Source: Nitrosopumilus sp.
Lineage (GTDB): Archaea; Thermoproteota; Nitrososphaeria; Nitrososphaerales; Nitrosopumilaceae
DNA length: 64,000 nt
Assembly: GCA_965223425.1 (NCBI GenBank)
Contig: OZ245003.1
Coordinates: 96,001-160,000, forward strand
Reading direction: 5' to 3'
Shown here one piece after another: positions 3,854-39,704 of this stretch. Made by a program: the position numbers and the translations under genes. Within the stretch, counting starts at the first letter, position 1, and each line of letters begins with the position of its first letter. The notes beneath the pieces were generated by a model, which did no database searches, was not told the DNA's origin, and saw nothing but the letters and a program-made list of their open reading frames with translations.

Positions 3854-4147
3854 CAGTAGTTGGGATTGTACATTTTGGATAGTCCAAACTGATCACTTTA
3901 AGAACAAAACACGATCAATCAGATCCAAATACAAGGCATATTCACCCACCTTGGCTTGTACGGAAAAGATGGGCAAACACACCAACAGAAGGAAGATATC
4001 AAGGGGTTTAAAATCTTCCAGTCCGCACTGCAGCGCCTGAATCTTGCCTTTGGCACAAGACACAACAGACTGCTGTACTGCCTCAAGGATGCAGCGCACG
4101 TGATCTTGGTTTGCCCGGTATCAGCATGCCGTCTGGCAGCTGGTTGC
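3854..4147 (+). mobile_element. Degenerate left end of a second ISH3-family element
   Basis: Starts CAGTAGTT like the ISH3 TIR; encodes GFKIFQSALQRLNLAFGTRHNRLLYCLKDAAHVI, similar to RFKILRSSFQKLGMPMSERHNAVYGCNDILDVL in the intact ISH3 transposase. Right limit approximate. Confidence 0.6.
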
Positions 4148-4364
4148 TCAGAAAACTGCGCCTCATAAACTCTAAATGAACACCTGTTTGAAAACGGTGA
4201 AAACATCCTAAGATTCAACAGTGTAATAACAGGTTCATTGGTTAGTTGACGGATGATTTCCAACTTTTCAAACAATTGTTTAGTTTCAGGCGATAAAACC
4301 AGTTTGAAAATTTGGTGTAAAGTTTAGAGTGATCCTTGTATGTCCAACTGTAAGAGACTAGACA

Positions 4365-4655
4365 TTGGCTGGAGCAATAATTTGTTGGTGTGGACATCAT
4401 GCCAAATACCACAGCACACAAATTCCAAATAGATGTTCCAAGCGCGATAAATGCCAGTATTTCAATCCCATATCACGAAGTTTAAAGTCAAGGAAAAAAT
4501 ACAACGGTATAATGAAGGCAAGATTCAACGGAACATGCAAGGTATGCAATTTGGAGATAAAGGCAACAAAACAGAGATTACAAAAGACGACAACGGCAAC
4601 TGGATTCATGCAAGCTGTTCTGATACCAAAGATGAGATTCCATAGCATAAAATGA
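4365..4655 (+). pseudogene. Virus-like Cys/His-rich small protein, probably frameshifted
   Basis: CWCGHH, MKARFNGTCKVC; continues in another frame as EITKDDNGNWIHASC. Confidence 0.4.
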
Positions 4656-4873
4656 GAGAATACCTCAACTCCAGGGAGAGATGCATGGTTTGTTTCAAAC
4701 CTCCCGAAAAAGACTATGAGTTAATAGTTCATCACGTGAGTTATTTTCCAGAGATATGTTGCTTTGTTCATTATTTGTGTCACAAAAAAATTCACGATAT
4801 TGACAACCCAATACGTGCCTTGATTCAATACAAGGATGGTGATTCCAGAGAATTTTATAAAAAAAATCCTTGA
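4652..4873 (+). CDS. Small HNH-like protein
   Basis: CMVC...LIVHHVSY...VHYLCHKKIH resembles the HNH signature. Confidence 0.55.
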   Translation: MREYLNSRERCMVCFKPPEKDYELIVHHVSYFPEICCFVHYLCHKKIHDIDNPIRALIQYKDGDSREFYKKNP

Positions 4874-4975
4874 ATTACATTATGGAAAAAATAATCTTAT
4901 TACTACAGACCAGGTTAGATTTTGAATTTGAGTCACTCTTATCATCATCTAATTTCCTTGATCGGGGCACATAAG

Positions 4976-5074
4976 AGACCTTATGCGCAATCGACTAAAA
5001 ATTCAAAATCAAATTGGTTTGCTAAGGCAAGAATCATCTAGCAATATTAGTTTGATCGATTACGCATAAGGTCT
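4976..5074. mobile_element. 99-bp MITE (IS5/ISL2-type ends), copy 1
   Basis: TIR AGACCTTATGCG(C/T)AATCGA; 3-bp TSD AAG; near-identical copy at 11916-12014. Confidence 0.9.
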
Positions 5075-5199
5075 AAGATTACTTTTCAAGACTTCAAGAG
5101 ATTAGCTTGGGCCAACAGCTATCTTTACCATTAGACAACCAGCCAAGCCCTGAGGTTTCAAAATATTGTTTGTCTCTCTCCAAGTGTTCTTTTGAATCC

Positions 5200-5460
5200 A
5201 ACCAGTAGGAGTTACCTTGACAAAACCGAAATTAGAAATAATAAAAGCCTTAGGAATGAGCAAACAAACATTCTACAGGTGTTTTGAAGATCTAGGAAAA
5301 TACGAATTAGTAACACCAAATAGGAAAAGCAAAGCTCTACAAAATTAATCAAGAAAATCCAATGGTAGAAATGATTATTGATTTTGGAAAAAACATGTCA
5401 GAGATGCAGATTGCAGAACGTGAAGCAGTGGAGATGGCAAAAGTAGTTCCTGCAAAATAG
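5200..5460 (+). pseudogene. Frameshifted winged-helix protein remnant
   Basis: Fragments LGMSKQTFYRCFEDLGKYELVTP and QENPMVEMIIDF...VVPAK* lie in different frames; 5' limit approximate. Confidence 0.45.
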
Positions 5461-5779
5461 ATCTATTAATCGAATTTTTATTCATAACAAAAAAGCTGAC
5501 AGGCGAGGATCACTTGCTCTCATCAAAGTGTCAGCTATTAGTCAACGGAACCGGTGAGTTAACGGGAGCTGATTTCTCGTAGAAAGCGTTGTGAGATGGG
5601 CTTGTAAAGTTGCCGATCAAAGTTTGGTTTAGAATTGTTGGTTTTTAATGTCTCAAAGTTTGAGTTTTGAGTAAAACCGGGTCTCGGCTCTTAACAGTGA
5701 GAAAAGTTCATCGTAGGTCTGGATTGCTTAACAGAACCGAACTATGAAAGGTTAAATACTCTTTGATGAAAAATTTCGT

Positions 5780-6037
5780 GTGCCAACTGCATACGTTTTA
5801 CTGAATTCTGATTTAGGATCAGATGAATCAATCATTAATGAGGTAAAACAGATTCTTGCTGATGAAGATGTTACATCTGAGGTTCGAGGGGTTTACGGGG
5901 TATATGATATTGTCTTAAAATTATCTTCTAATGATGCAGAAAAATTACGGGCAATTATTACCAACAAAATTAGAAAAATCAGCAAGGTTCAATCTACATT
6001 GACTATGATGGTAATCGAGGAACAAGAAAACCTATAA
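5780..6037 (+). CDS. Lrp/AsnC ligand-binding-domain protein
   Basis: AYVLLN...VYGVYDIVLKL...IRKISKVQSTLTM. Confidence 0.9.
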   Translation: MPTAYVLLNSDLGSDESIINEVKQILADEDVTSEVRGVYGVYDIVLKLSSNDAEKLRAIITNKIRKISKVQSTLTMMVIEEQENL

Positions 6038-7183
6038 TTTTTTTAACGCATTAATTACTTGAAGTATTTCTGATTCTGTATTAAAAAAGTGGGGGGACGC
6101 TCGTATAATTTTTTGCTCCATAATTTCTCTTACTGCTAGAACAATACCCTGTTTTTCAAGTTTATCCACTGTTTCTTGCGAATCAGACCCTTTGATGTTA
6201 AAAGAGACAATGCTTGTTCTGTCATTTGGATTCTCTGGTCCGTATAATATGACATTTGGAATTTTTGATAATTCATCTCGGAAAAGATTTGATAAATATT
6301 GGTTTTTCTTATGAATGTTTTTCATACCAAACTTTTGCAAGTACTGCATGGATGATGCCAATCCAACAATTCCGACATAGTTTCTAAAGCCGGTTTGGAA
6401 TTTATCAGGCAGTTCCTTGAAAGCAAGATTCGTATCATCATAAAGAATTGCAGATTCGCCGCCAATTGTAATTGGATCTAATAATTCACTTGACTTTCCA
6501 TCACAATAAAATAAACCAGTTCCCATTGGACCGCAAAGCCATTTGGAGCCATTAAATGACATGAAATTACATTTAATCTTGGAGACATCAATGTCACCTA
6601 TACAGCCTACAGTTTGTGCGCTATCAATAAAGAATGGTACTCTGTCTTGAAGAATACTTCCAATTTTTTCTACGGGCAGTATTGAACCTGTATTGTATAG
6701 TGCATGGCTTAGTGATACTAGTTTGGTATTAGCATCAATGTGGGATTCTAGATCATCTAATTTGAAAAAACCATTTTTATCTATGGGTAAATTTTTTATT
6801 GAAATTTTTTCTTTCAGTTTAATCCAAGGATAGAAATTTGAATGGTGTTCATGTGCCATTCCACGGATTATTATGTTGGAATTGGCATCAAACGAGAGGC
6901 CATTTGCTACAATATTGATCCCATCAGTTGTGCTTTGAGTTAGGATAACTTCATCAGGTTGACAGGAGATAGTTTCTGAAACAATTTTTCTTGCGTTTCG
7001 TAGCTTTTCAGTTACAAACGAATCAGAATCCTTAGAATCAGGACCGATAGAATTGTACGAAATCAGAAATTCTTTCATGGCTTCAATACTTTGAGAAGGC
7101 ATCAGAGATACTGACGCACTGTTTAGGTAGATTTTATCTGAACCAGGAAAATCATCTGAGATATCTTTGGATGCTAAATTCAT
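6032..7183 (-). CDS. Class V aminotransferase / cysteine desulfurase-like
   Basis: YLNSAS, EHHSN, DSAQ, GSKWLCGP (PLP Lys), IRASPHFFN. Confidence 0.9.
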   Translation of the reverse strand: MNLASKDISDDFPGSDKIYLNSASVSLMPSQSIEAMKEFLISYNSIGPDSKDSDSFVTEKLRNARKIVSETISCQPDEVILTQSTTDGINIVANGLSFDANSNIIIRGMAHEHHSNFYPWIKLKEKISIKNLPIDKNGFFKLDDLESHIDANTKLVSLSHALYNTGSILPVEKIGSILQDRVPFFIDSAQTVGCIGDIDVSKIKCNFMSFNGSKWLCGPMGTGLFYCDGKSSELLDPITIGGESAILYDDTNLAFKELPDKFQTGFRNYVGIVGLASSMQYLQKFGMKNIHKKNQYLSNLFRDELSKIPNVILYGPENPNDRTSIVSFNIKGSDSQETVDKLEKQGIVLAVREIMEQKIIRASPHFFNTESEILQVINALKKL

Positions 7184-7206
7184 TATTATATCTGTAAAAT
7201 GCTAAA

Positions 7207-7830
7207 ATGGTGTTGGATAAAAGTCCTGAGCAGGTTTTAGATAATGGTTTAACACAAATTCAAAATGAATTTAGAGAAAATATGCCAAGCATGATACTAT
7301 GTTTGGAACCTTTCAATAAAACAGATTTTCTTAACAGGCTGATCAATTCTGTTGAGGATCCCATCATCTTTGTAGATATGGATTTGCTATACACTGGATA
7401 TGTTAAATCTGGAATGATTCAGGAAAAGAAAAATGTAACAATTTTTCATCCTGATAAGACAAGTTGGAAAGAAAAACTAGCTAAAGTCATAAGTAAGGTA
7501 TCAGACGAAAAATTCTTGGTTATAATTGACTCATTTAACGGGGTTTACAATATGTTTGATGATCTCGAGTCTGCCAGATTCATCAATTCATGCATCATGC
7601 TGCTTTCATCTATTGGAAGACAAACAGATTCATCCGTTGTTATAGCTGCAATGGTTAGAAAAAAAGAAGACGGAGAAATGGTCATATCACCAGGAGGAAA
7701 ACAAATCATAAGCTCAGAAAAAACTGGCATTTTTTTTCTGAAAAAAATTGGTGATGACTTGTTGTTAAGTACGTTAGAAGGCACAGATGTCAGTTCAAAA
7801 ACATTCAGGATAGAACAAGAAAATGATTAA
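7207..7830 (+). CDS. Conserved hypothetical protein (degenerate RecA-like fold)
   Basis: 207-aa ORF with IIFVD and LVIIDS strands; the true start may be downstream. Confidence 0.7.
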   Translation: MVLDKSPEQVLDNGLTQIQNEFRENMPSMILCLEPFNKTDFLNRLINSVEDPIIFVDMDLLYTGYVKSGMIQEKKNVTIFHPDKTSWKEKLAKVISKVSDEKFLVIIDSFNGVYNMFDDLESARFINSCIMLLSSIGRQTDSSVVIAAMVRKKEDGEMVISPGGKQIISSEKTGIFFLKKIGDDLLLSTLEGTDVSSKTFRIEQEND

Positions 7831-7855
7831 TTCGGTTTGGATGCGATCAGAATTT

Positions 7856-7891
7856 AGAAACGCCGTTATAAAATCAGAAACGCCGTTATAA
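7856..7891 (+). promoter_or_regulatory. 16-bp direct repeat upstream of the ferredoxin gene
   Basis: AGAAACGCCGTTATAA at 7856-7871 and 7876-7891. Confidence 0.45.
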
Positions 7892-7944
7892 CTCGAGAAT
7901 TTTAGGTAAATTATATTAAGACCAAATTAAGAATGAATTTTGTT

Positions 7945-8244
7945 ATGCCAGTAGGAATTATTCCAGACATCAGCGAACAAATGTGTATCGGATGTGCACT
8001 ATGTGTAGAAATCTGTACCACGTTGGGACCAGATGTACTCAGAGTAAAACCAGTTGAAGGCTGGAAGAGAGGTAAAGCATTTGTATTTTATCCAGAAAGA
8101 TGTATTTCTGATGGTGCATGCATCGGTGTATGCCCAACTAAAGCAATCTTTTGGATGAGACCAATGGACTTTACTGTTGGACAACCAGTTCCACTCTACA
8201 AGAACTCAGTCTTCGTTAAAGGTTGGACCGAATTAATCGATTAG
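7945..8244 (+). CDS. 4Fe-4S dicluster ferredoxin
   Basis: CIGCALCVEIC and CISDGACIGVCP; start placed at MPVG. Confidence 0.92.
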   Translation: MPVGIIPDISEQMCIGCALCVEICTTLGPDVLRVKPVEGWKRGKAFVFYPERCISDGACIGVCPTKAIFWMRPMDFTVGQPVPLYKNSVFVKGWTELID

Positions 8245-8585
8245 ATTAGTTCAATCATTTTTTAATTTCTTTTTATTATTTTAGATTTTAACGGCATCTG
8301 GTTTGCTTTGTGAAATATTTGGCTTTTTCGGCTAGCTAGACATCATCATTCCTTGACACATTTGTAGATTACACTAGACGTATGGATCAGTTAGACTGAT
8401 GCCAAAAGGCATCCGTGAACAAAAAATACGGCCGCATGATCTATCCCGGTGCACAGAAGACTTTATGCACAATTGAATCGTTAAAATTTTTCCGAAAGAT
8501 TTAGATCCATTTTGATCGCCGCAACAGGTAATGGAATCTTCAGAACAGACTATACGCAGGCTGCAAAGGGAGCTCAAGCAAAAGG

Positions 8586-8664
8586 ACAGAGCAATCAAGC
8601 AGAACAACAGAGCAATCAAGCAGAACAACAGAGCAATCAAGCAGAACAACAGAGCAATCAAGCA
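8586..8664 (+). repeat. 21-bp tandem repeat (KQNNRAI heptad) in the transposase N-terminus
   Basis: ACAGAGCAATCAAGCAGAACA x about 3.7. Confidence 0.85.
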
Positions 8665-9004
8665 AAAGGACGCAGCAATCAGCAGGCGCGAGAAGACAAT
8701 TGGCCTGCTGCGCGAGCAGCTGCTGCGCGAGGACAGCCTGTGGGCCGTTACAGATGCAGGCCGCTCTGATACGGACACGTCGCTGCTACTGCACAGCAGG
8801 GAGGTGATCCACGGCATACTGCACAACAGCGCAAAGCTTGCAGGGATTACCGTATGACCTTGACCAGTTTGACTACACCTGCAATGACTTTGTGGTAGAG
8901 TCAAAGAGGCACAACAAAGACGCGCCGCTCTTTTCAGAGGACGAAACACCGGATCCCGGAAACCGCTGCCTGCTTGACCGCAGGTCCGTCCTGCTGCTTG
9001 CGCT

Positions 9005-9112
9005 GTTCCGCAAGCGCTCAAACGTGACGCAGGATGCACTCTAAAGTTAAAGAGCAAGCCCCTAATCAGCCTACAAGTTCCGCAAGCGCTCAAACGTGAC
9101 GCAGGATGCACT
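9005..9112. repeat. 36-bp direct repeat pair around a 36-bp unrelated insert (CRISPR-like unit)
   Basis: GTTCCGCAAGCGCTCAAACGTGACGCAGGATGCACT at 9005-9040 and 9077-9112; insert at 9041-9076. Confidence 0.85.
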
Positions 9113-10613
9113 GGGAGTGCTGTTTGATGTGGATCAGTCCACCGTGTGCAGGTACCTCAAGTTTGCAGATTCCGTGCTGGCAAAGATTCTGCCTACTGCA
9201 GACAGGATGACCCGTCTGGTAAAAAAGGCCGAGACATCAGAGCAGCTAGAGCAGCTAATGCCGGACAGAACCATCATAATTGACGGCACCGAGGTGGTGC
9301 CAAGGCAGCGTCCGCAGGACAAGGATAAAAGAAAAAACACGTACTCTGGCAAAAAGAAGCGCTTTACGATTAACACCACCATAACAACAAACAAGGCAGG
9401 CCTGATACTTGCAGCAGGCAGGTCCTTTGAGGGCGGGACGCACGACCTTGCCATGATAAGAGAGGATCCGACAGACTGGCAGGTGGTCTAAATCCATGTA
9501 CAAAAAAGACACTCCGGAAAAGGACAGGATACGGTGCTTGCAGACAAGGGGTACCAGGGATGCCAATCACTACGAGGGAATAGCACTTGAGATGCCGGAA
9601 AAAAAGAGGCCGCGGACGGAGCTGACGCAGCAGCAAAAGGACTCCAACAAAAGGATCAGCGCCAAGAGGGTAAAGGCGGGGCACGCCATCGGAAGAATAA
9701 AGCAGTGGGCAAGGATGACAGACCCGTACGACGGCACGGTAGAGGAGTTTCGCGAGGAGCTGGCTGTGTGTACCGGCCTTGCAAACTTTGGTTTGCTGTG
9801 GGATGCAAAAAGAAAGCGGCCGTCACTTGGTTATTGACGGTACGATACTGGGTGCATGATGATGATGATGATGATGACGCATCGCAAGAGTGCGCACGGA
9901 TTTCTAATTTCTGCGAATTTACAATGATCTTTTGCATCAAAATTAAATAATTTCCTGGACTGGCTTTGTGTGTCTTGGTAATGTATGCTGCAGAAAAAAT
10001 TTGACGGGTCAATTATGCATAAAGTCTATTGTATATGACGTCTCATCAAGTTTCAGGTATTTTGATCTGCCAATATTTTCTTTCCATGACTCTACCTCTG
10101 ACTCTAACGCTCCTCCTAATGCAAACAGCGCGTTTTGTATTGTTTTTTTGCAGATTGACGTGTCATACAGGCTTGCTGCCTCCCTGATTGAGTTCAGGCT
10201 GCAGCCTTGTTTATACATCGACATGATTATTGTCATGAGGTTCTTGCCAATCGATGTTCCGTCTATTCCGACCCGGGGCGTTGTGACACGTCCGCACCTG
10301 CAGGTGCAGTGCTGTATGACGTTGTTTGTGGATACGGTCCTTGGAATCTCCGGAATGTCGACTGTCATCTTTGTCGTGGTTTTTGTAACGGTAATGCCTT
10401 TGCTGCCGCACTTTGCGCATTTCTTTGGCCTGTGCACCGTTGTGTGACAAGGCCTTCTCTTGTGGGATGCGCCGACGTGGCCTGCCTTTGCTCCGCCCTT
10501 GTTTGGAGGGGAGGAGGAGGAGGAGGAGGAACCGCCTTTTGCACGGTCTGCCTTTTTTCGGCGCGTGGGAATGGAGTTTGCCGACGGCGGTGAGTGCGGA
10601 TTCTCGTAGAACG

Positions 10614-11746
10614 TAGTGAATTGGATTAACAATCGCTCACAAAACAGACAACATTATTCAACCACAAGATCTAGATCCCAGTGTATGGCAGAATCCGCAT
10701 GAAATACAACGATTCCATAGTAATACCGGCAGACAAAAGATTCCTGTCCGGCGTCTCCAGTGCGCGCCTGCGCAGCATGCAAAAAAAGGAGACAGATCCC
10801 AGGGCCGCAACAAGACTGCTGGCATATGCCATGCGCAAGGAGGGCATGTCCATACGCCGGATATGCATGGCCCTCAACAGGTCATATTCCACAGTACGGG
10901 GCTGGCTTGTGCGCGCCGCACAGCTTGGCACCGACGGCAGATACGACATCAAAAATGAAGGCGCGCCAAACAAGCTCGATCCGGAACAGATAGAACAGCT
11001 GCGCGCAGACCTGCTGGCAGGCCCGCGCAGTTGCGGCTTTGAGTCCGGAGTGTGGACGGCACCGCTGCTGGCCGTACACATCAGAAAAAAGTTCGGCGTG
11101 CAGTATGCCACTGTCAGCATATATGACATACTGCACAGGATGGGCTTTTCGTGCAGAAAGCCGCGTCCAAAGCACCCAAGTCAGCCTCAGAATCAGAGAA
11201 AAAAAAGTTTAAAAAAAAGCAGAGGAGATAATCCAGAGTCATCCAGACCATACGGTGATTACAGTTGACGAGGCCTCCTTTATCATTGGGTGGAATACCA
11301 AGAACGGGTGGTACCCCAAGGGCAGGCCCGTCACCACTCCAGTCAGCCTGTCGCGCAAAAGGTTCTACTCGTTTGGGGCGCTGTACGACGGCGGCTTTGA
11401 CTGCAGGTTCTATGCCAAGGCCGACAGCTACGGCTTTGTGGACATGCTCGGACACCTGCATCTCAAGCACGGCAAGATCATCGTCTTTCTTGATAACGCA
11501 TCGTACCACAAGTCAAAGATGGTCAATGATTTTGTCGACTCGTATGACGGCGACATAGTCCCTGTTTACTTGCCCGTGTACACCCCGGAGCTGAATACCA
11601 CGGAGGGGCAGTGGAGGCTGTTAAGAAGGGCCACTGCAAACGTGATGTATGAAAGCACAAAGGTGATGAAGGAATCCATATGGACAATGCTGTATAGACG
11701 TGAGGTCAGGATAACAAGGATGAGCGGTTATTTATCCTAGTCACTA
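10614..11746 (+). mobile_element. IS630-family element A, copy 1
   Basis: Imperfect ~26-bp TIRs TAGTGAATTGGATTAACAATCGCTCA / TAGTGACTAGGATAAATAACCGCTCA; CG duplicated on both sides. Confidence 0.9.
10681..11740 (+). pseudogene. IS630 transposase, frameshifted
   Basis: Two ORFs (10681-11268, 11255-11740) match the intact 352-aa copy at 30912-31970. Confidence 0.85.
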
Positions 11747-11915
11747 CGCTACGCGCCTCTTTAGTTCCGCTATTGTCAAATCCTTCTCGGCTTCCCTTGC
11801 CTGTAATTTTTTTACATCGCCTGCCAACTGGCTGACAATCTTTCGCAAGTTGTCGTTTTCAGCAAATGATTTTGCCAGAGCATCCCGTAATATCTTGATC
11901 TCCGAGTCACTCATT

Positions 11916-12014
11916 AGACCTTATGCGTAATCGACTAAAAATTCAAAATCAAATTGGTTTACTAAGGCAAAAATCATCTCGCAATATTAGTTTGATCGAT
12001 TATGCATAAGGTCT
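11916..12014. mobile_element. 99-bp MITE, copy 2
   Basis: Same sequence as 4976-5074; ATT TSD confirmed against the empty site in IS66 copy 1. Confidence 0.92.
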
Positions 12015-12090
12015 ATTAGACAGAATCAGGGATCATCGAATTTGGATCAGTATGATCTAGAATGTTTGAGTTCGTGACTAACCTAGCCTC

Positions 12091-12423
12091 TTACGATTCT
12101 TCTTCTTTCCAGAACTCTTCACAAAAATCATCAAACATTTGTTCACGTTTTTCAGGATCTGCAGTGGCAAAGGTTTGAAGATCAGCATTAAGCAGAAAGT
12201 TTCTAATGTTATCAACTCCAATATCGTTTATTTCCATTATTTCAAACTGTTTTTTCAAGACATGATTTTGAAGCATTATACCATCAAACATAACGTCTAT
12301 TTTTTCCTCTAAACTTCCAGATTCATTAAATTTCTTTTTAAGATCTTTTCTAATCTTGTCTAGCATATCGTGCATCTTAAAAATATTCTCATCTAATTCA
12401 AAATCGATATCTTCCTCATCCAT
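12091..12423 (-). CDS. Acidic hypothetical protein; stop codon supplied by the IS66 end
   Basis: 110-aa ORF whose TAA lies in the IS66 TIR. Confidence 0.6.
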   Translation of the reverse strand: MDEEDIDFELDENIFKMHDMLDKIRKDLKKKFNESGSLEEKIDVMFDGIMLQNHVLKKQFEIMEINDIGVDNIRNFLLNADLQTFATADPEKREQMFDDFCEEFWKEEES

Positions 12424-12506
12424 GATCTAACAAAAATTAAACTATGTCTTAAAGATGCTGATCACTGGATTTACCAGAACCTGATAATTTCATAAACTAA
12501 TTAGAT

Positions 12507-13583
12507 CTACTGTGGAGAATCAGGATCAGATGAATGAATTATAAAATCTATAGATTCGTTGACAAGCTGATAGAAAGTTCCCGCCCGGTCATAATCCACC
12601 CTCTGCTCTATATCTAGTTGAAAAGGCCTGTCATACATATGCGGACTATAATAACTAGTATTAATAAAAAATTCAAAAGTCCCGCCACGTGTATCAACCT
12701 CACATCTAGTATCTGAAAACTGCCAGACTTGACCACTAGCTATATGGTCTCTACAAACAGGTACAAGCAGATTTCCATCATTTGCCTCTCTAACGTCAAC
12801 TCTGTAAGTTACTTGTAGATCATCATGGTAACTTCCATCTTCATCATGCAGGTTCTCAGGAAGAGGGAAAAAACTGCCCGTAATCGTAATTATGTCACCG
12901 GCGACATATTCAGTTTTGTCAGTGGTCATATGAAAAGCATCCTGATTCATTGCCCTCGTTTTTTCTTGAAGGGCCATTAGTTCATTACCAATTATTGCCA
13001 TCTCTTTGGATTTCTCTATATACATTGCAGTCAATCTATCAATTTCGTTGGCAATTTGAGAAATAGTTTCAGTTTCCGGTTCCGGCTCTGGTGTTGGATC
13101 CGGCTCTGGTGTTGGATCCGGCTCTGGTGTTGGATCCGGCTCTGGTGTTGGATCAGGATCCAATATGGTAAGAGTTACACTATCAGTGTGGATCTCAACG
13201 GCCTCTCCATTCACGTAATCATAAAGAAAAGATTTTACCTCATACTCACCAGGAGGGCAATCAACCGATATTTCACTAATTCTAATTTCAGGATTTTCAT
13301 CCACTTTGTACATATAACGATAGTCACCCATGCCCCATCCCTCGCAGATTTCTCCAAGTCTAATATTCATGACATCAGCCCTGAAAATATAATCTGTGGT
13401 CTGTTTGTTGTTATCAAAGTCCAAATCATTGTATAGCATTGTGACGGTAACCAATTCACCTGCAGTTACTGAGTATCTTGTTAGCCCGATCTCAGTCGTA
13501 TCTGCAAAGGCCGGCATTGATAAATTAATCATAATAAATGCAAACGCTGCAATAATGACAATCTTGGGCATAGTGACCATCAT
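12507..13583 (-). CDS. Secreted/surface protein with a PEPDPT linker
   Basis: Signal peptide ending AFA; beta-rich domains; TDKTEYVAGDIITITG motif; 18-bp repeat linker. Confidence 0.8.
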   Translation of the reverse strand: MMVTMPKIVIIAAFAFIMINLSMPAFADTTEIGLTRYSVTAGELVTVTMLYNDLDFDNNKQTTDYIFRADVMNIRLGEICEGWGMGDYRYMYKVDENPEIRISEISVDCPPGEYEVKSFLYDYVNGEAVEIHTDSVTLTILDPDPTPEPDPTPEPDPTPEPDPTPEPEPETETISQIANEIDRLTAMYIEKSKEMAIIGNELMALQEKTRAMNQDAFHMTTDKTEYVAGDIITITGSFFPLPENLHDEDGSYHDDLQVTYRVDVREANDGNLLVPVCRDHIASGQVWQFSDTRCEVDTRGGTFEFFINTSYYSPHMYDRPFQLDIEQRVDYDRAGTFYQLVNESIDFIIHSSDPDSPQ

Positions 13584-35395: not shown

Positions 35396-36205
35396 ATGAC
35401 AAAAGAATATAAGCGTAATTTATCAGATAGAGAATCACGGATCATCACAGATCTTAGTTACAAAAACAAATCAATATTCACAATTAATGATTTGAAAGAA
35501 TATGTAAAAGATACAAAAAATTTTCTTCATCACCTAGTTGAGAGAAAATGGATTTTGAAAATACGAAATGGGGTTTATGCCATTACACCATTTGATGCAG
35601 GAAAGGAAGGTTCTGGAAGTTATACTCTACATAGCTTTGTAATAGGTTCCCTTCTCACAACACCATATTACATTGGATATTTGAGCGCATTAAATTATCA
35701 TGGTTTAACTGATAGAACACCATCACATGTATACATAGTAACAACAAAAGCAAAACATTCACGTGAATTACTTGATATAAAATTCAAATTTGTAACTGTG
35801 CATTCCAGAAAAATGTTTGGTTTAGAAGAAGAAATAATTGATGATAAAAAAGTGATAATGTCGTCTCTTGAGAAAACTATTGTAGACTGTTTAGATCATC
35901 CAGAATATAGTGGCGGTATTGAAGAAATTGCTAAATCACTGTTTTTTTCAAAAAATGAAATTGATGTGGAGTTATTGGTTAATTACGCAAAGAAAATTGA
36001 AAATAATACGGTAATCAAAAGATTAGGATACATATCAGAAATAATTGAGTGGAATGAATGTTTAGAGTTACTTGTTAATATAAAATTGAAGAGTGGATAT
36101 TCACTTCTTGAACCGAAATTTCCAAAAAATTCTACCTCAAAAATCAAGGAAAGATGGAAGTTATTAGTAAACACTAAACTAGAATCAAAGAGGTTCTTAC
36201 ATTAA
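35396..36205 (+). CDS. Type IV TA antitoxin, AbiEi family
   Basis: N-terminal wHTH, YIGYLSALNYHGLT, EKTIVDCLDHPEYSGG, KRLGY. Confidence 0.9.
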   Translation: MTKEYKRNLSDRESRIITDLSYKNKSIFTINDLKEYVKDTKNFLHHLVERKWILKIRNGVYAITPFDAGKEGSGSYTLHSFVIGSLLTTPYYIGYLSALNYHGLTDRTPSHVYIVTTKAKHSRELLDIKFKFVTVHSRKMFGLEEEIIDDKKVIMSSLEKTIVDCLDHPEYSGGIEEIAKSLFFSKNEIDVELLVNYAKKIENNTVIKRLGYISEIIEWNECLELLVNIKLKSGYSLLEPKFPKNSTSKIKERWKLLVNTKLESKRFLH

Positions 36206-37002
36206 TGATTTTAAGGCAAGAATTAGTAAATGAAGCAAAAAAGCACGGATTTGCTTTAGATATAATGGCAAAACATTATGTTTTAGGATGGCTTTTACAT
36301 GGAATTCTATCAACTACAATATCAGATAGTTTGATATTCAAAGGGGGAACAGCATTATCTAAAATTCATTATCCTAACAACTGGAGATTATCAGAAGATT
36401 TGGATTTTACAGCATCGAATAGTGAAGAATTTGATACATTTGGAAATGTTTTGAAAAATGAATTACCTGCAATAGTGAAAAATTCATGTGATTTGGACAT
36501 AAAACAAAAAGACGAACCATATACAAATGGCGGATATGTGCGGACAAGATTTTCCTATAATAGCAAAATTGGCACTGGCGCTGTAAAAATTGAAATTACA
36601 GCAGAAAATGTAATAGGAACAGTTGAAAAAAAGCAGTTATTCAAGATTTTTGATTATCCGGATTTGGAAGTTAGAACGTATTCAGTTTCTACAATTCTAG
36701 CAGAAAAACTTCGTGCCATTATAGAACGTGGTTATGTCAGAGATTATTATGATGCATGGAGACTATTGAAAATTGAAAAATTTGATAATGATGCTGTCAG
36801 AAATTTATTTTTAGAAAAATTAAAGCTTAGAGATACAAAATTTGAAGGTATAGAGCAATTTTTTCCTGAAGGAGTTGTTGAAGAATTTGAGACACAGGTT
36901 GAAGAGGGTTTAACAAGATTAAAGGATGAGGAATTGCCTACTATGAGTAATATGATAAAAGAGCTAGAGGCGTTATTAGAAAAAAATATTTTCTTGAATT
37001 AG
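36205..37002 (+). CDS. Type IV TA toxin, AbiEii nucleotidyltransferase
   Basis: FKGGTAL, RLSEDLDF, KIEI, AEKLRA, RDYYD; translationally coupled (TAATG). Confidence 0.92.
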   Translation: MILRQELVNEAKKHGFALDIMAKHYVLGWLLHGILSTTISDSLIFKGGTALSKIHYPNNWRLSEDLDFTASNSEEFDTFGNVLKNELPAIVKNSCDLDIKQKDEPYTNGGYVRTRFSYNSKIGTGAVKIEITAENVIGTVEKKQLFKIFDYPDLEVRTYSVSTILAEKLRAIIERGYVRDYYDAWRLLKIEKFDNDAVRNLFLEKLKLRDTKFEGIEQFFPEGVVEEFETQVEEGLTRLKDEELPTMSNMIKELEALLEKNIFLN

Positions 37003-38296: not shown

Positions 38297-38371
38297 CTAA
38301 ATACTTCAAACAGGTTCAATTTCAACATCGTAAAAATGTTTAGGCGTTAAGAGATTTCAGGCAGATACTAG

Positions 38372-39662
38372 GGTTCTGTGAAGTTATCGGGAGTTAACCC
38401 CTATAACTCGACTTTGACATATCGACTATTCGGATTACCAATGGTGTGCCGGATTCCGTCATCGCCGGCTCAAAAGTGCCGGACTGCGCTTCACATATGT
38501 CATCTCTACTGCCCCTAAACCTAGGGGGCAGCTTGCGTGATATGTTGTTCATGGCAGCGACAATATCCCTGTCCATAAACAAACCGCAATTATTACACGA
38601 CAGTTTACGATGCTGTTGCATGTCCTCTTGGAGTCTCTTTCCGCATTGCGGACACTGCGTGCTCGTGTTTCTTGGGTCTACTGTCTCGACTGGCGGGAGC
38701 CCGACCCGTTGGGCTTTGTATTCTATTTGGCGTTGCAGCTCGTAGAATTGCCACCCGTTCAATCTGCGCCTGTACTTGTTGCCCTGACCATTTCCTTTTT
38801 TGTAGAGTTTTCTAACTCCTTTCAGGTTTTCTAGAACGATTGCAGCCTTTTCTTTGACGGCATTATCCACAATATCCTTTGATATTCTGTGGATGCATTG
38901 TTTTGCTCTGTCAGTCAGTCTTCTCTGTTTTTCCTTGCAGAACTGGTTTTTCTTCCTGCGGTCATTTCTGTGGAAGCCTGCCCTGGCGTGTATTGTGTTC
39001 TCCTTTATGGATAGCAGCTTGTTTGTCTTGCAGACTGTCACCCCTTCCTCGCTCCCACACGTCACATTTCTTAGGTTTCTGTCTATTCCAACTTTCTTGG
39101 TGCACTCTATCTCTTGTACTTTTTTTGAAACACAAAGACTGATGTTGAGGGCAGTCAGTGAAAACGAGCGCACCGTCAGGGCGGGATCAGACAGGATTTT
39201 TTGGGCGTGATCGTTGAGTAAAATGTTGATTGGGTTATGCTTCTTGTATGGGATTGTTAGTAGTGCACCGTTGTGTTTTATGCCGTAACAGTTTGTCATA
39301 AAGGGATTTTTGACTATTGGGCCTCTTATTCTGACACCTCGTTTGACTGATTGTTTTCTGTTTGATAATATGCCTGCAGCCCTTGATATTGCATTTAGTT
39401 TGTATGACGATAAAATGTCATAGTTACGTAATTCATGATAACATAACATGGACAGCCTCTTCATATTGTGAGTGTCTTCTTTCAACCCTATCTTGATGCA
39501 ATGATTGGCCATCTTTGTGAATGTAGCCGCCATATCCATTAGGTCAGAGTTCGGCGCATATTTCTGTGATATTGGCTTTATCGCCTTCAGCGAATATCTT
39601 GCGGTTTGGAGGCTTGTACATTTTGGGAATTGACATATAACTCCCGATAACTTCACAGAACC
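38372..39662 (-). mobile_element. TIR-bounded non-autonomous element carrying tnpB
   Basis: Perfect 25-bp TIR GGTTCTGTGAAGTTATCGGGAGTTA; 8-bp TSD GATACTAG (38364-38371, 39663-39670). Confidence 0.93.
38394..39590 (-). CDS. tnpB: RNA-guided endonuclease TnpB
   Basis: VGIDRN, IVLENL, CPQC/CNNC, DRDIVAA. The start must lie inside the element (CTG at 39590 or ATG at 39539), not at 39758. Confidence 0.9.
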   Translation of the reverse strand: MKAIKPISQKYAPNSDLMDMAATFTKMANHCIKIGLKEDTHNMKRLSMLCYHELRNYDILSSYKLNAISRAAGILSNRKQSVKRGVRIRGPIVKNPFMTNCYGIKHNGALLTIPYKKHNPINILLNDHAQKILSDPALTVRSFSLTALNISLCVSKKVQEIECTKKVGIDRNLRNVTCGSEEGVTVCKTNKLLSIKENTIHARAGFHRNDRRKKNQFCKEKQRRLTDRAKQCIHRISKDIVDNAVKEKAAIVLENLKGVRKLYKKGNGQGNKYRRRLNGWQFYELQRQIEYKAQRVGLPPVETVDPRNTSTQCPQCGKRLQEDMQQHRKLSCNNCGLFMDRDIVAAMNNISRKLPPRFRGSRDDICEAQSGTFEPAMTESGTPLVIRIVDMSKSSYRG

Positions 39663-39704
39663 GATACTAGCAACTTTATTAAAAGAAAAATTGCAAAATA
39701 AGTT

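Follow-up and report, generated by a model that had tools for sequence, protein, structure and literature searches.

Cas12 descends from TnpB, whose accepted role, a homing activity that offsets the loss caused by scarless excision, has been worked out in IS605 and IS607 elements. The stretch of Nitrosopumilus sp. DNA analysed here (64,000 nucleotides, called the window; C1:96001-160000 of a 2.64-Mb genome with 41% G+C) contains a tnpB gene that lies between perfect inverted repeats flanked by an exact 8-bp duplication. To which kind of transposon does this gene belong, what moves it, and what could an RNA-guided nuclease do for such an element? Our results suggest that it is probably a non-autonomous transposon on an IS6-type chassis, which would carry TnpB and its guide RNA (omegaRNA) as cargo, be mobilised in trans, take its guide from the flank of the insertion site, and be spread or retained by homing.

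A tnpB element with IS6-type ends

The element occupies window positions 38372-39662 and is 1291 bp long. Its 25-nt inverted arms (38372-38396 and 39638-39662) are 100% complementary, and the octamer GATACTAG abuts both of them (38364-38371 and 39663-39670) as an exact 8-bp target duplication. The single long open reading frame (ORF) of the element is tnpB on the minus strand (38394 to at most 39656), and no transposase is encoded. The stop codon TAA (38396-38394) forms the innermost 3 nt of the arm at 38372-38396. An initial annotation of this stretch, made from the sequence, had described a 1291-bp unit with perfect 25-bp terminal repeats, an exact octamer duplication, and tnpB as the only cargo with its stop codon inside one repeat, and all of this was confirmed. 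When the element is oriented by its gene, the arm at 39638-39662 is the left end (LE, gene-start side) and the arm at 38372-38396, which holds the stop codon, is the right end (RE), both on the minus strand. The LE repeat is of the IS6 type, with a GG tip and CTGT, and the same end family is found on elements with IS6-like transposases.

A genome search with the 25-mer (up to 3 mismatches) gave 26 occurrences, versus 0 for the reversed control, so the inverted repeat is far beyond chance. The orthologous locus had contiguous flanks and a single GATACT(A)G-like octamer in 11 of the 11 related genomes that were read. These empty sites indicate that the 8-bp duplication was made by the insertion. 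The LE-side copy (39663-39670, GATACTAG on the plus strand) corresponds to the single copy in the empty sites, and the RE-side copy is at 38364-38371. No contig of four sequencing runs bridged the empty site.

BLAST of the element against the genome found 8 intact 1291-bp copies with 96-100% identity. Two further copies had 95% and 85% identity, two were interrupted by IS630-like elements, three were fragments, and two belonged to a sister subfamily (83-86% identity) in which the inner repeat differs. Seven TnpB copies were flanked by perfect and mutually different 8-bp duplications and one by a 7/8 duplication, a pattern that the initial annotation had named as support for its reading. All compared copies differed by at least 0.8%, and the least-diverged pair was 10 nt apart. 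The copies at C1:1325308-1326598 and 1451399-1452689 lie in opposite orientation and their flanking octamers are swapped as reverse complements, which implies that recombination between the two copies inverted about 127 kb.

These copies bear on a rival explanation, in which an IS1341-type tnpB inserted once into a miniature inverted-repeat element and no lasting association was formed. Miniature elements of 86-333 bp with GGTTCTGT ends do exist in the genome, which speaks for such an event. However, all intact copies carry the repeats and have travelled together with them to 8 or more different sites, and TnpBs down to 30-40% identity are found in other genera and families within the same frame. 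All 26 genome matches to the 25-mer fall in tnpB elements or fragments of them, so this search gave no empty mini-element of this end subfamily; a pattern search of 5 genomes gave no mini-element of 81-111 bp, and the genome has no Y1 TnpA (see below) and no intact copy of this tnpB without inverted repeats. Neither a tnpB elsewhere without repeats nor a common empty miniature element, the two things that the annotation had expected under a one-off insertion, was seen. This explanation is already contradicted by the data and has next to no likelihood.

The ORF matched Pfam Cas12f1-like_TNB (8e-20, above cut-off) and NCBIfam guided_TnpB (NF040570; 110 bits, cut-off 100), and its best solved relatives were Cas12f and TnpB chains. 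In an alignment with 5 relatives, D194, E278, D364/D366 and the zinc-finger cysteines C337, C340, C356 and C359 were invariant. The protein has the RuvC D-E-D triad and the CxxC...CxxC zinc finger of TnpB/OMEGA nucleases, both intact as first described. The ratio of non-synonymous to synonymous polymorphism (pN/pS) was 0.35 among the 8 intact copies, indicating that the protein is under purifying selection.

The start codon is uncertain. The conserved N-terminus begins near 39593 and has no in-frame ATG close to it; the sole canonical in-frame start is a GTG inside the LE repeat, which sets the upper limit of the gene at 39656. The frame is open to this GTG in most copies, the codon reads GCG in 2 of the 8 intact copies, and some copies in the relative G395 carry a stop codon at this position. 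Where relatives show ATG or TTG-TTG, the present subfamily reads TCG CTG. A 30-codon frame that starts with ATG overlaps the N-terminus out of frame (39593-39662, minus strand), and it is also seen in the same stretch of other copies.

The frame is not confined to this genome. TnpB relatives with 30-90% identity in Nitrosopumilaceae, Nitrosotalea, Nitrosotenuis and soil Thaumarchaeota lie in the same GGTTCTGT-ended, 8-bp-duplicating frame. Nine genomes among 41 relatives had a TnpB match, and the inspected ones (30-64% identity) had the same ends, four with perfect duplications. In 78 loci from named assemblies (Nitrosopumilus, Nitrosotenuis, Nitrosotalea, soil Thaumarchaeota and one Bathyarchaeia bin), GGTTCTGT-type ends with an 8-bp duplication were recovered at 30 (29 perfect, one 7/8) by a repeat finder that did not presuppose the motif. 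Several of the other loci had ends but no duplication; for most of the remainder the repeat pairs were spurious or lacking, and some contigs were cut at the gene. When a second, divergent TnpB clade was searched for in 301 genomes of the order, part of its 30 loci had this frame as well. About 25 copies were present in G395.

Two of the copies in the genome (C1:594234-596770 and 2292571-2294969) are interrupted by insertions of 1.1-1.3 kb that encode proteins of 350-370 residues, which resemble IS630/Tc1-type transposases. The insertion in the first of them has copies inside other elements too. DNA runs labelled as four coded organisms also contain the element. A joint between 38393 and 39641, seen in two contigs of one DNA run with a short side of 22 nt, is probably an assembly fold-back at the inverted repeat and was not used.

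Transposases encoded elsewhere

No Y1 TnpA was found with PF01797 (0 matches in the 99.99%-complete genome; the control was positive in 6 of 14 known genomes), and IS607-type serine recombinases were not searched for. PF13610 matched at 8 places in the genome, with 4 matches above cut-off. A tblastn search of the genome gave three long ORFs and many decayed fragments, all of one transposase family. An intact IS6-like transposase gene of 358 residues lies at C1:917264-918337, and G395 has such transposases too. Its best NCBIfam family was IS6 (NF033587), aligned over positions 1-202 of 202 with 111 and 122 bits against a cut-off of 125. These transposases are about 345-385 residues long and have N-terminal zinc-binding regions.

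The elements that carry these transposases end in GGTTCTGT-type repeats and, whenever both ends could be located, show 8-bp duplications. A decayed transposase element at 793017 has a 25-nt end that matches the sister TnpB subfamily in 24/25 nt, and several metagenomic transposase elements have ends close to those of other TnpB subfamilies. IS6-like DDE transposases with the same kind of ends are present in this genome and in relatives; the initial annotation had named an IS6-type transposase with the same terminal repeat as a supporting observation. The two genes are kept apart: none of 62 transposase loci had a TnpB match beside the transposase, and one TnpB locus had a transposase fragment.

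The autonomous elements are 2-4 kb long, and a DNA methyltransferase is among the passengers that they often contain. When inverted repeats were searched for without bias, no good pairs came up within 1.5 kb of 29 metagenomic IS6-like transposase genes; this was because the autonomous elements are longer and their left end lies at least 1.3 kb upstream, and regions of 11-18 kb around the transposase genes were then fetched. Passengers between the left end and the transposase were seen at L165:142-1419, C1:1207405-1208193 of the genome, and L164:163-1284. They include an ORF that resembles a DNA methyltransferase, its motifs being judged by eye, and small ORFs on the opposite strand. In another relative (locus L253 at 3980-13293; G021, C1:1775655-1793400), three different IS6-like transposase elements stand head to tail with the octamer TGTTTCGA between each.

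Most likely, then, the tnpB element is moved in trans by IS6-like DDE transposases encoded elsewhere in the genome. The idea of the initial annotation, an RNA-guided nuclease on a DDE-mobilised non-autonomous transposon, gains support from the copies, the transposases and the related ends; the movement in trans and the homing are what we infer.

The omegaRNA and an oriented motif

The last ~200 nt of the element have a conserved fold. RNAalifold predicted 40 pairs for 12 sequences, with compensatory changes at 18 of the pairs, and in the second clade 44 pairs in 10 sequences, 15 of them compensatory, with the same terminal hairpin recovered. Synonymous divergence fell from 0.061 to 0.010 over the RNA stretch, 6-fold below the gene body, which indicates that extra nucleotide constraint is acting there. 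A structured RNA that overlaps the tnpB 3' end, as in OMEGA systems, was thus found by covariation in two clades and by reduced synonymous change. We place the omegaRNA scaffold at 38372-38590 (minus strand), from within the 3' end of tnpB to the end of the element. The region matched no Rfam family; the single match (E 0.2) was to an unrelated long non-coding RNA model.

The scaffold includes part of the transposon end. The inner part of the right repeat finds its pairing partner in the sequence just upstream of that repeat, also in subfamilies with differing repeats, and a 6-nt tail, AGAACC (38372-38377), is left over. The resulting terminal hairpin lies at 38378-38412 (minus strand), with its 3' arm supplied by the repeat. 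Its mean energy was -10.7 kcal/mol at RE versus -3.6 at the equivalent LE stretch (30 distinct elements; Wilcoxon 2e-8). The pairing suggests that the inner right repeat is built into the guide RNA as one arm of the last hairpin. About 130-150 nt upstream, a GGTTT/GGTTC/AGTTC loop, invariant or nearly so and complementary to the repeat tip, was present in 12/12 and 10/10 of the aligned sequences, and the tip (GAACC) probably supplies a pseudoknot strand.

This order resembles that of ISDra2, for which the available text describes a hairpin (stem 4), a pseudoknot strand at -6 to -2, and then the guide (PMC10097598). By analogy, the guide would start at the first base outside the repeat and consist of the octamer and the adjoining flank. 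The predicted guide segment, read outward from RE, is 38352-38371 (minus strand; the octamer and about 12 nt of flank), and it is based on the hairpin and tail at RE, the ISDra2 layout and the position of the motif described next. With this placement, a target-adjacent motif (TAM) is predicted directly 5' of the octamer in the empty site, which is where that motif lies.

We tabulated 42 distinct insertion sites with a duplication of at least 7/8 and elements oriented by tnpB, and 39 of them belong to the main clade. T at -2 and G/A at -1 before the LE-side octamer were found in 39/39 of these, and TTG or TTA in 28/39. In the window the candidate TAM is TTG on the gene strand (39671-39673, minus strand), directly 5' of the octamer on the gene-start side. 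At other offsets the same dinucleotide occurred in 0-11 of the 39 sites, and its genome-wide frequency is 0.13. Relatives already have the motif in their empty sites, and copies that lost their duplication by recombination show it too. It was found on only 7 of 43 sides of TnpB-less elements with the same kind of ends (Fisher 1.5e-16; one of the 22 elements compared later proved to be a TnpB-derived remnant). For transposase-bearing elements oriented by their gene, the number on the equivalent side was 2/12 (counted by hand over the tabulated rows; Fisher test run). A one-sided, oriented preference is not expected from a DDE enzyme that acts on identical ends, so the motif goes with the cargo. 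In divergent clades ATAT preceded 3 sites of one and TTT 3 sites of another, which is suggestive of clade-specific motifs.

Could this motif be something other than a TAM, either a target preference of the transposase or a flank that completes the tnpB promoter? The upstream flanks are AT-rich, this subfamily has almost no room for a promoter before the possible GTG start, and IS6-family elements form hybrid promoters according to passages of a review (PMC7986276). In contrast, a transposase on identical ends should show its preference symmetrically, while the mirrored position beyond the RE-side octamer has the motif in only 9/39 sites, and the elements that lack TnpB or bear a transposase have it as rarely as given above. 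Subfamilies with an upstream region of their own (45-70 nt) that start at ATG or TTG carry the motif as well. An invariant dinucleotide at a fixed offset is, moreover, unlike an archaeal TATA box. We therefore regard a motif that is not a TAM as improbable.

The position of the motif fits a TAM placed such that the empty site reads TAM, octamer and flank, matching a guide that is read from the right end. It lies 8 bp from the left end, across the duplication, rather than abutting the element as in the IS1341 group. In the occupied site, the TAM slot at the right junction is filled by ACC, and the left junction offers only 8 matching bases.

The guide might instead be internal and fixed, starting right after the scaffold helix, with the spacer and repeat of related IS6-type elements as its target. 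The covarying scaffold does end at ...GTCAAAGTCGAG, 35-100 nt before the end of the element, and in the subfamily L036 the repeat directly follows the block that ends in GTCAAAGTCGAG. However, this arrangement leaves the oriented motif outside the element unexplained, and no empty mini-elements of this subfamily that could serve as targets were found. The spacer and inner repeat fold into a conserved hairpin in which compensatory changes occur and the 6-nt tail is constant, which is scaffold-like and not guide-like. An internal guide is very improbable on this evidence. Two other arrangements, a guide that begins at AGAACC and a pseudoknot in which an ACUUU loop pairs with AAAGU where the scaffold ends, were dropped as they too left the external motif unexplained.

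A motif at every site raises a further question, namely whether TnpB acts at integration. TnpB, tethered to the right end through the nascent omegaRNA or the transposase, could dock on a TAM, and the DDE transposase would make its joins, staggered by 8 bp, right beside it; the motif would then be set at integration and not through homing afterwards. Both ends are identical over 25 bp and yet the orientation is fixed, and TnpB-less elements with the same kind of ends have the motif at background level, as would be expected if TnpB picks the target. In standard DDE strand-transfer geometry, the right-end 3'-OH would join the TAM-bearing strand exactly at the boundary between TAM and octamer, which also speaks for this idea. 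Against it, we know of no precedent for target selection by TnpB independent of its guide, and the copies, with the least-diverged pair 10 nt apart, are too old to part integration from survival. We hold such a choice of target to be unlikely, and the specific form of it, in which TAM docking makes TnpB the target selector and sets both position and orientation of the 8-bp staggered integration, to be about equally so.

The same divergence between copies means that 39/39 may be a matter of survival or a rule of integration. Survival of homing-competent insertions in recombining populations would account for it, and we consider the chances for and against this about evenly balanced. TnpB-dependent resolution of cointegrates was set aside as a reason for 39/39, since simple insertions that lack the motif are also reached by elements without TnpB.

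Two mini-elements of 344 and 388 bp (C1:1199933-1200276 and L083:35-422) retain only the last ~300 nt, the omegaRNA region, between both repeats. Both are flanked by perfect 8-bp duplications, with TTG or TTA on the side where the motif is expected; they could be guide-only derivatives that depend on TnpB supplied in trans, or mere internal deletions. Elsewhere in the window, two adjacent ORFs at 35396-37002 (269 and 265 residues, one-base overlap) resemble an AbiEi/AbiEii-type pair of antitoxin and nucleotidyltransferase.

Possible homing, known systems and implications

The TAM-like motif and the architecture of the omegaRNA make the idea of homing concrete. The omegaRNA would be read from the tnpB 3' end through the right inverted repeat, with the inner repeat as its last stem and the duplicated octamer and adjoining flank as its guide. 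An unoccupied site, reading TAM, octamer and flank, would be open to cutting by TnpB. Once a site is occupied, the element would part the TAM from the target and render the site immune. Repair of the cut from an occupied copy would then spread or retain the insertion.

Several points weigh against this reading. The 5' and 3' ends of the RNA, cleavage and transposition have none of them been observed. The RNA data are metatranscriptome contigs, which cannot give strand, ends or level; for contigs of a sponge metatranscriptome, the word depth over 38344-38787 of the window, the 3' part of the element, is several-fold above that of the remaining gene, and one contig extends from the right end into a different flank, a weak hint of abundant 3' RNA. 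The proposed pseudoknot joins two invariant segments and is hence beyond covariation, and the conserved long-range scaffold helix stops 35-100 nt short of the element end, the spacer varying in length, so that a fixed internal guide could start there. For each of the clade-specific motifs there are 3 sites. The 39/39 may reflect long-term survival and not an insertion rule, and simple homing does not obviously predict 100%. On the side of the transposase, the NF033587 scores are just below the NCBI cut-off, and the genome has no intact transposase element with exactly the 25-nt end of this subfamily, the nearest sharing the first 16-18 nt. Finally, a clear start codon is lacking in the tnpB subfamily studied here.

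The chassis is closest to the IS6/IS26 family. Its GG-tipped inverted ends with CTGT, its 8-bp duplications and the best family of the transposases agree with the end consensus and family features given in passages of the IS6 review (PMC7986276), and the tandem array in L253, with one shared octamer, resembles IS26-type insertion beside an existing copy and is the sole hint of replicative cointegrate formation. It differs in having tnpB in place of its own transposase, so that it is a non-autonomous derivative at most, and its archaeal partner transposases, long proteins with zinc-binding regions at the N-terminus, score just under the NCBI IS6 cut-off. The available text of that review names one passenger-carrying member and two miniature elements, and TnpB or OrfB occurs 0 times in it. 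With the IS1341 group of IS200/IS605, under which thaumarchaeal tnpB elements have been filed in the text available (PMC6563490), our element shares a single tnpB with an omegaRNA that overlaps its 3' end. Unlike that group, it has inverted ends and an 8-bp duplication, no left-end hairpin, and no Y1 TnpA in the genome.

The initial annotation took TnpB to be normally restricted to IS200/IS605/IS607 elements, and this was too strong. DDE-associated branches of TnpB have been published, with IS630 described in the main text of PMC10691335 (Altae-Tran et al. 2023) and ISL2, IS630 and IS1031 listed in the available part of PMC13565253. As in these branches, TnpB here lies inside a DDE-moved transposon with symmetric ends. 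The branches of Altae-Tran et al. were found through a DDE gene adjoining tnpB, whereas our elements belong with IS6 and never have the DDE gene in cis. The whole word 'IS6' occurs 0 times in the main text of PMC10691335; the SI Appendix and Zenodo tables may list it. Our full-text literature search found no paper that describes TnpB in an IS6-type chassis.

Two further systems are comparable. Fanzor1 is a TnpB homologue in eukaryotic DDE transposons that have inverted repeats and make duplications, and the available part of PMC13565253 reads the duplication as part of the TAM. The present case is prokaryotic, and its variable 8-bp duplication would belong to the guide and target, with the TAM beyond it. 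ISDra2 shares the RuvC D-E-D residues and zinc finger, and, in the portion of PMC10097598 that covers its RNA, the order of hairpin (stem 4), a 5-6 nt pseudoknot strand and guide. The match of our TnpB to the solved chain is weak (E 4e-4), and the last stem and putative pseudoknot strand come from the inverted repeat of a DDE transposon. New here are the covarying omegaRNA with an arm from the right repeat, and the oriented motif at 39/39 main-clade insertions.

In the available part of one review it is argued that DDE transposons gain little from OMEGA (PMC13565253). The present data point to a whole TnpB clade of ammonia-oxidising archaea in an IS6-type DDE chassis whose transposase is not in cis, and surveys based on gene neighbourhood would class such elements as IS1341-type orphans. 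An inverted repeat within the guide RNA would be under a two-way constraint, as transposase binding site and as RNA scaffold, and the guide would include the variable 8-bp duplication. The nuclease, at about 400 residues, would also be a compact editing candidate if it is active with a 3-nt TTG/TTA TAM. With the TAM-like motif at every insertion, it can be tested sharply and cheaply whether TnpB steers insertion as well or acts only once it has taken place. If TnpB does choose the target, the archaeal IS6/TnpB elements would be a natural case, in minimal form, of an RNA-guided nuclease coupled to DDE transposition, and each new insertion would be made already armed with a valid TAM and guide for homing.

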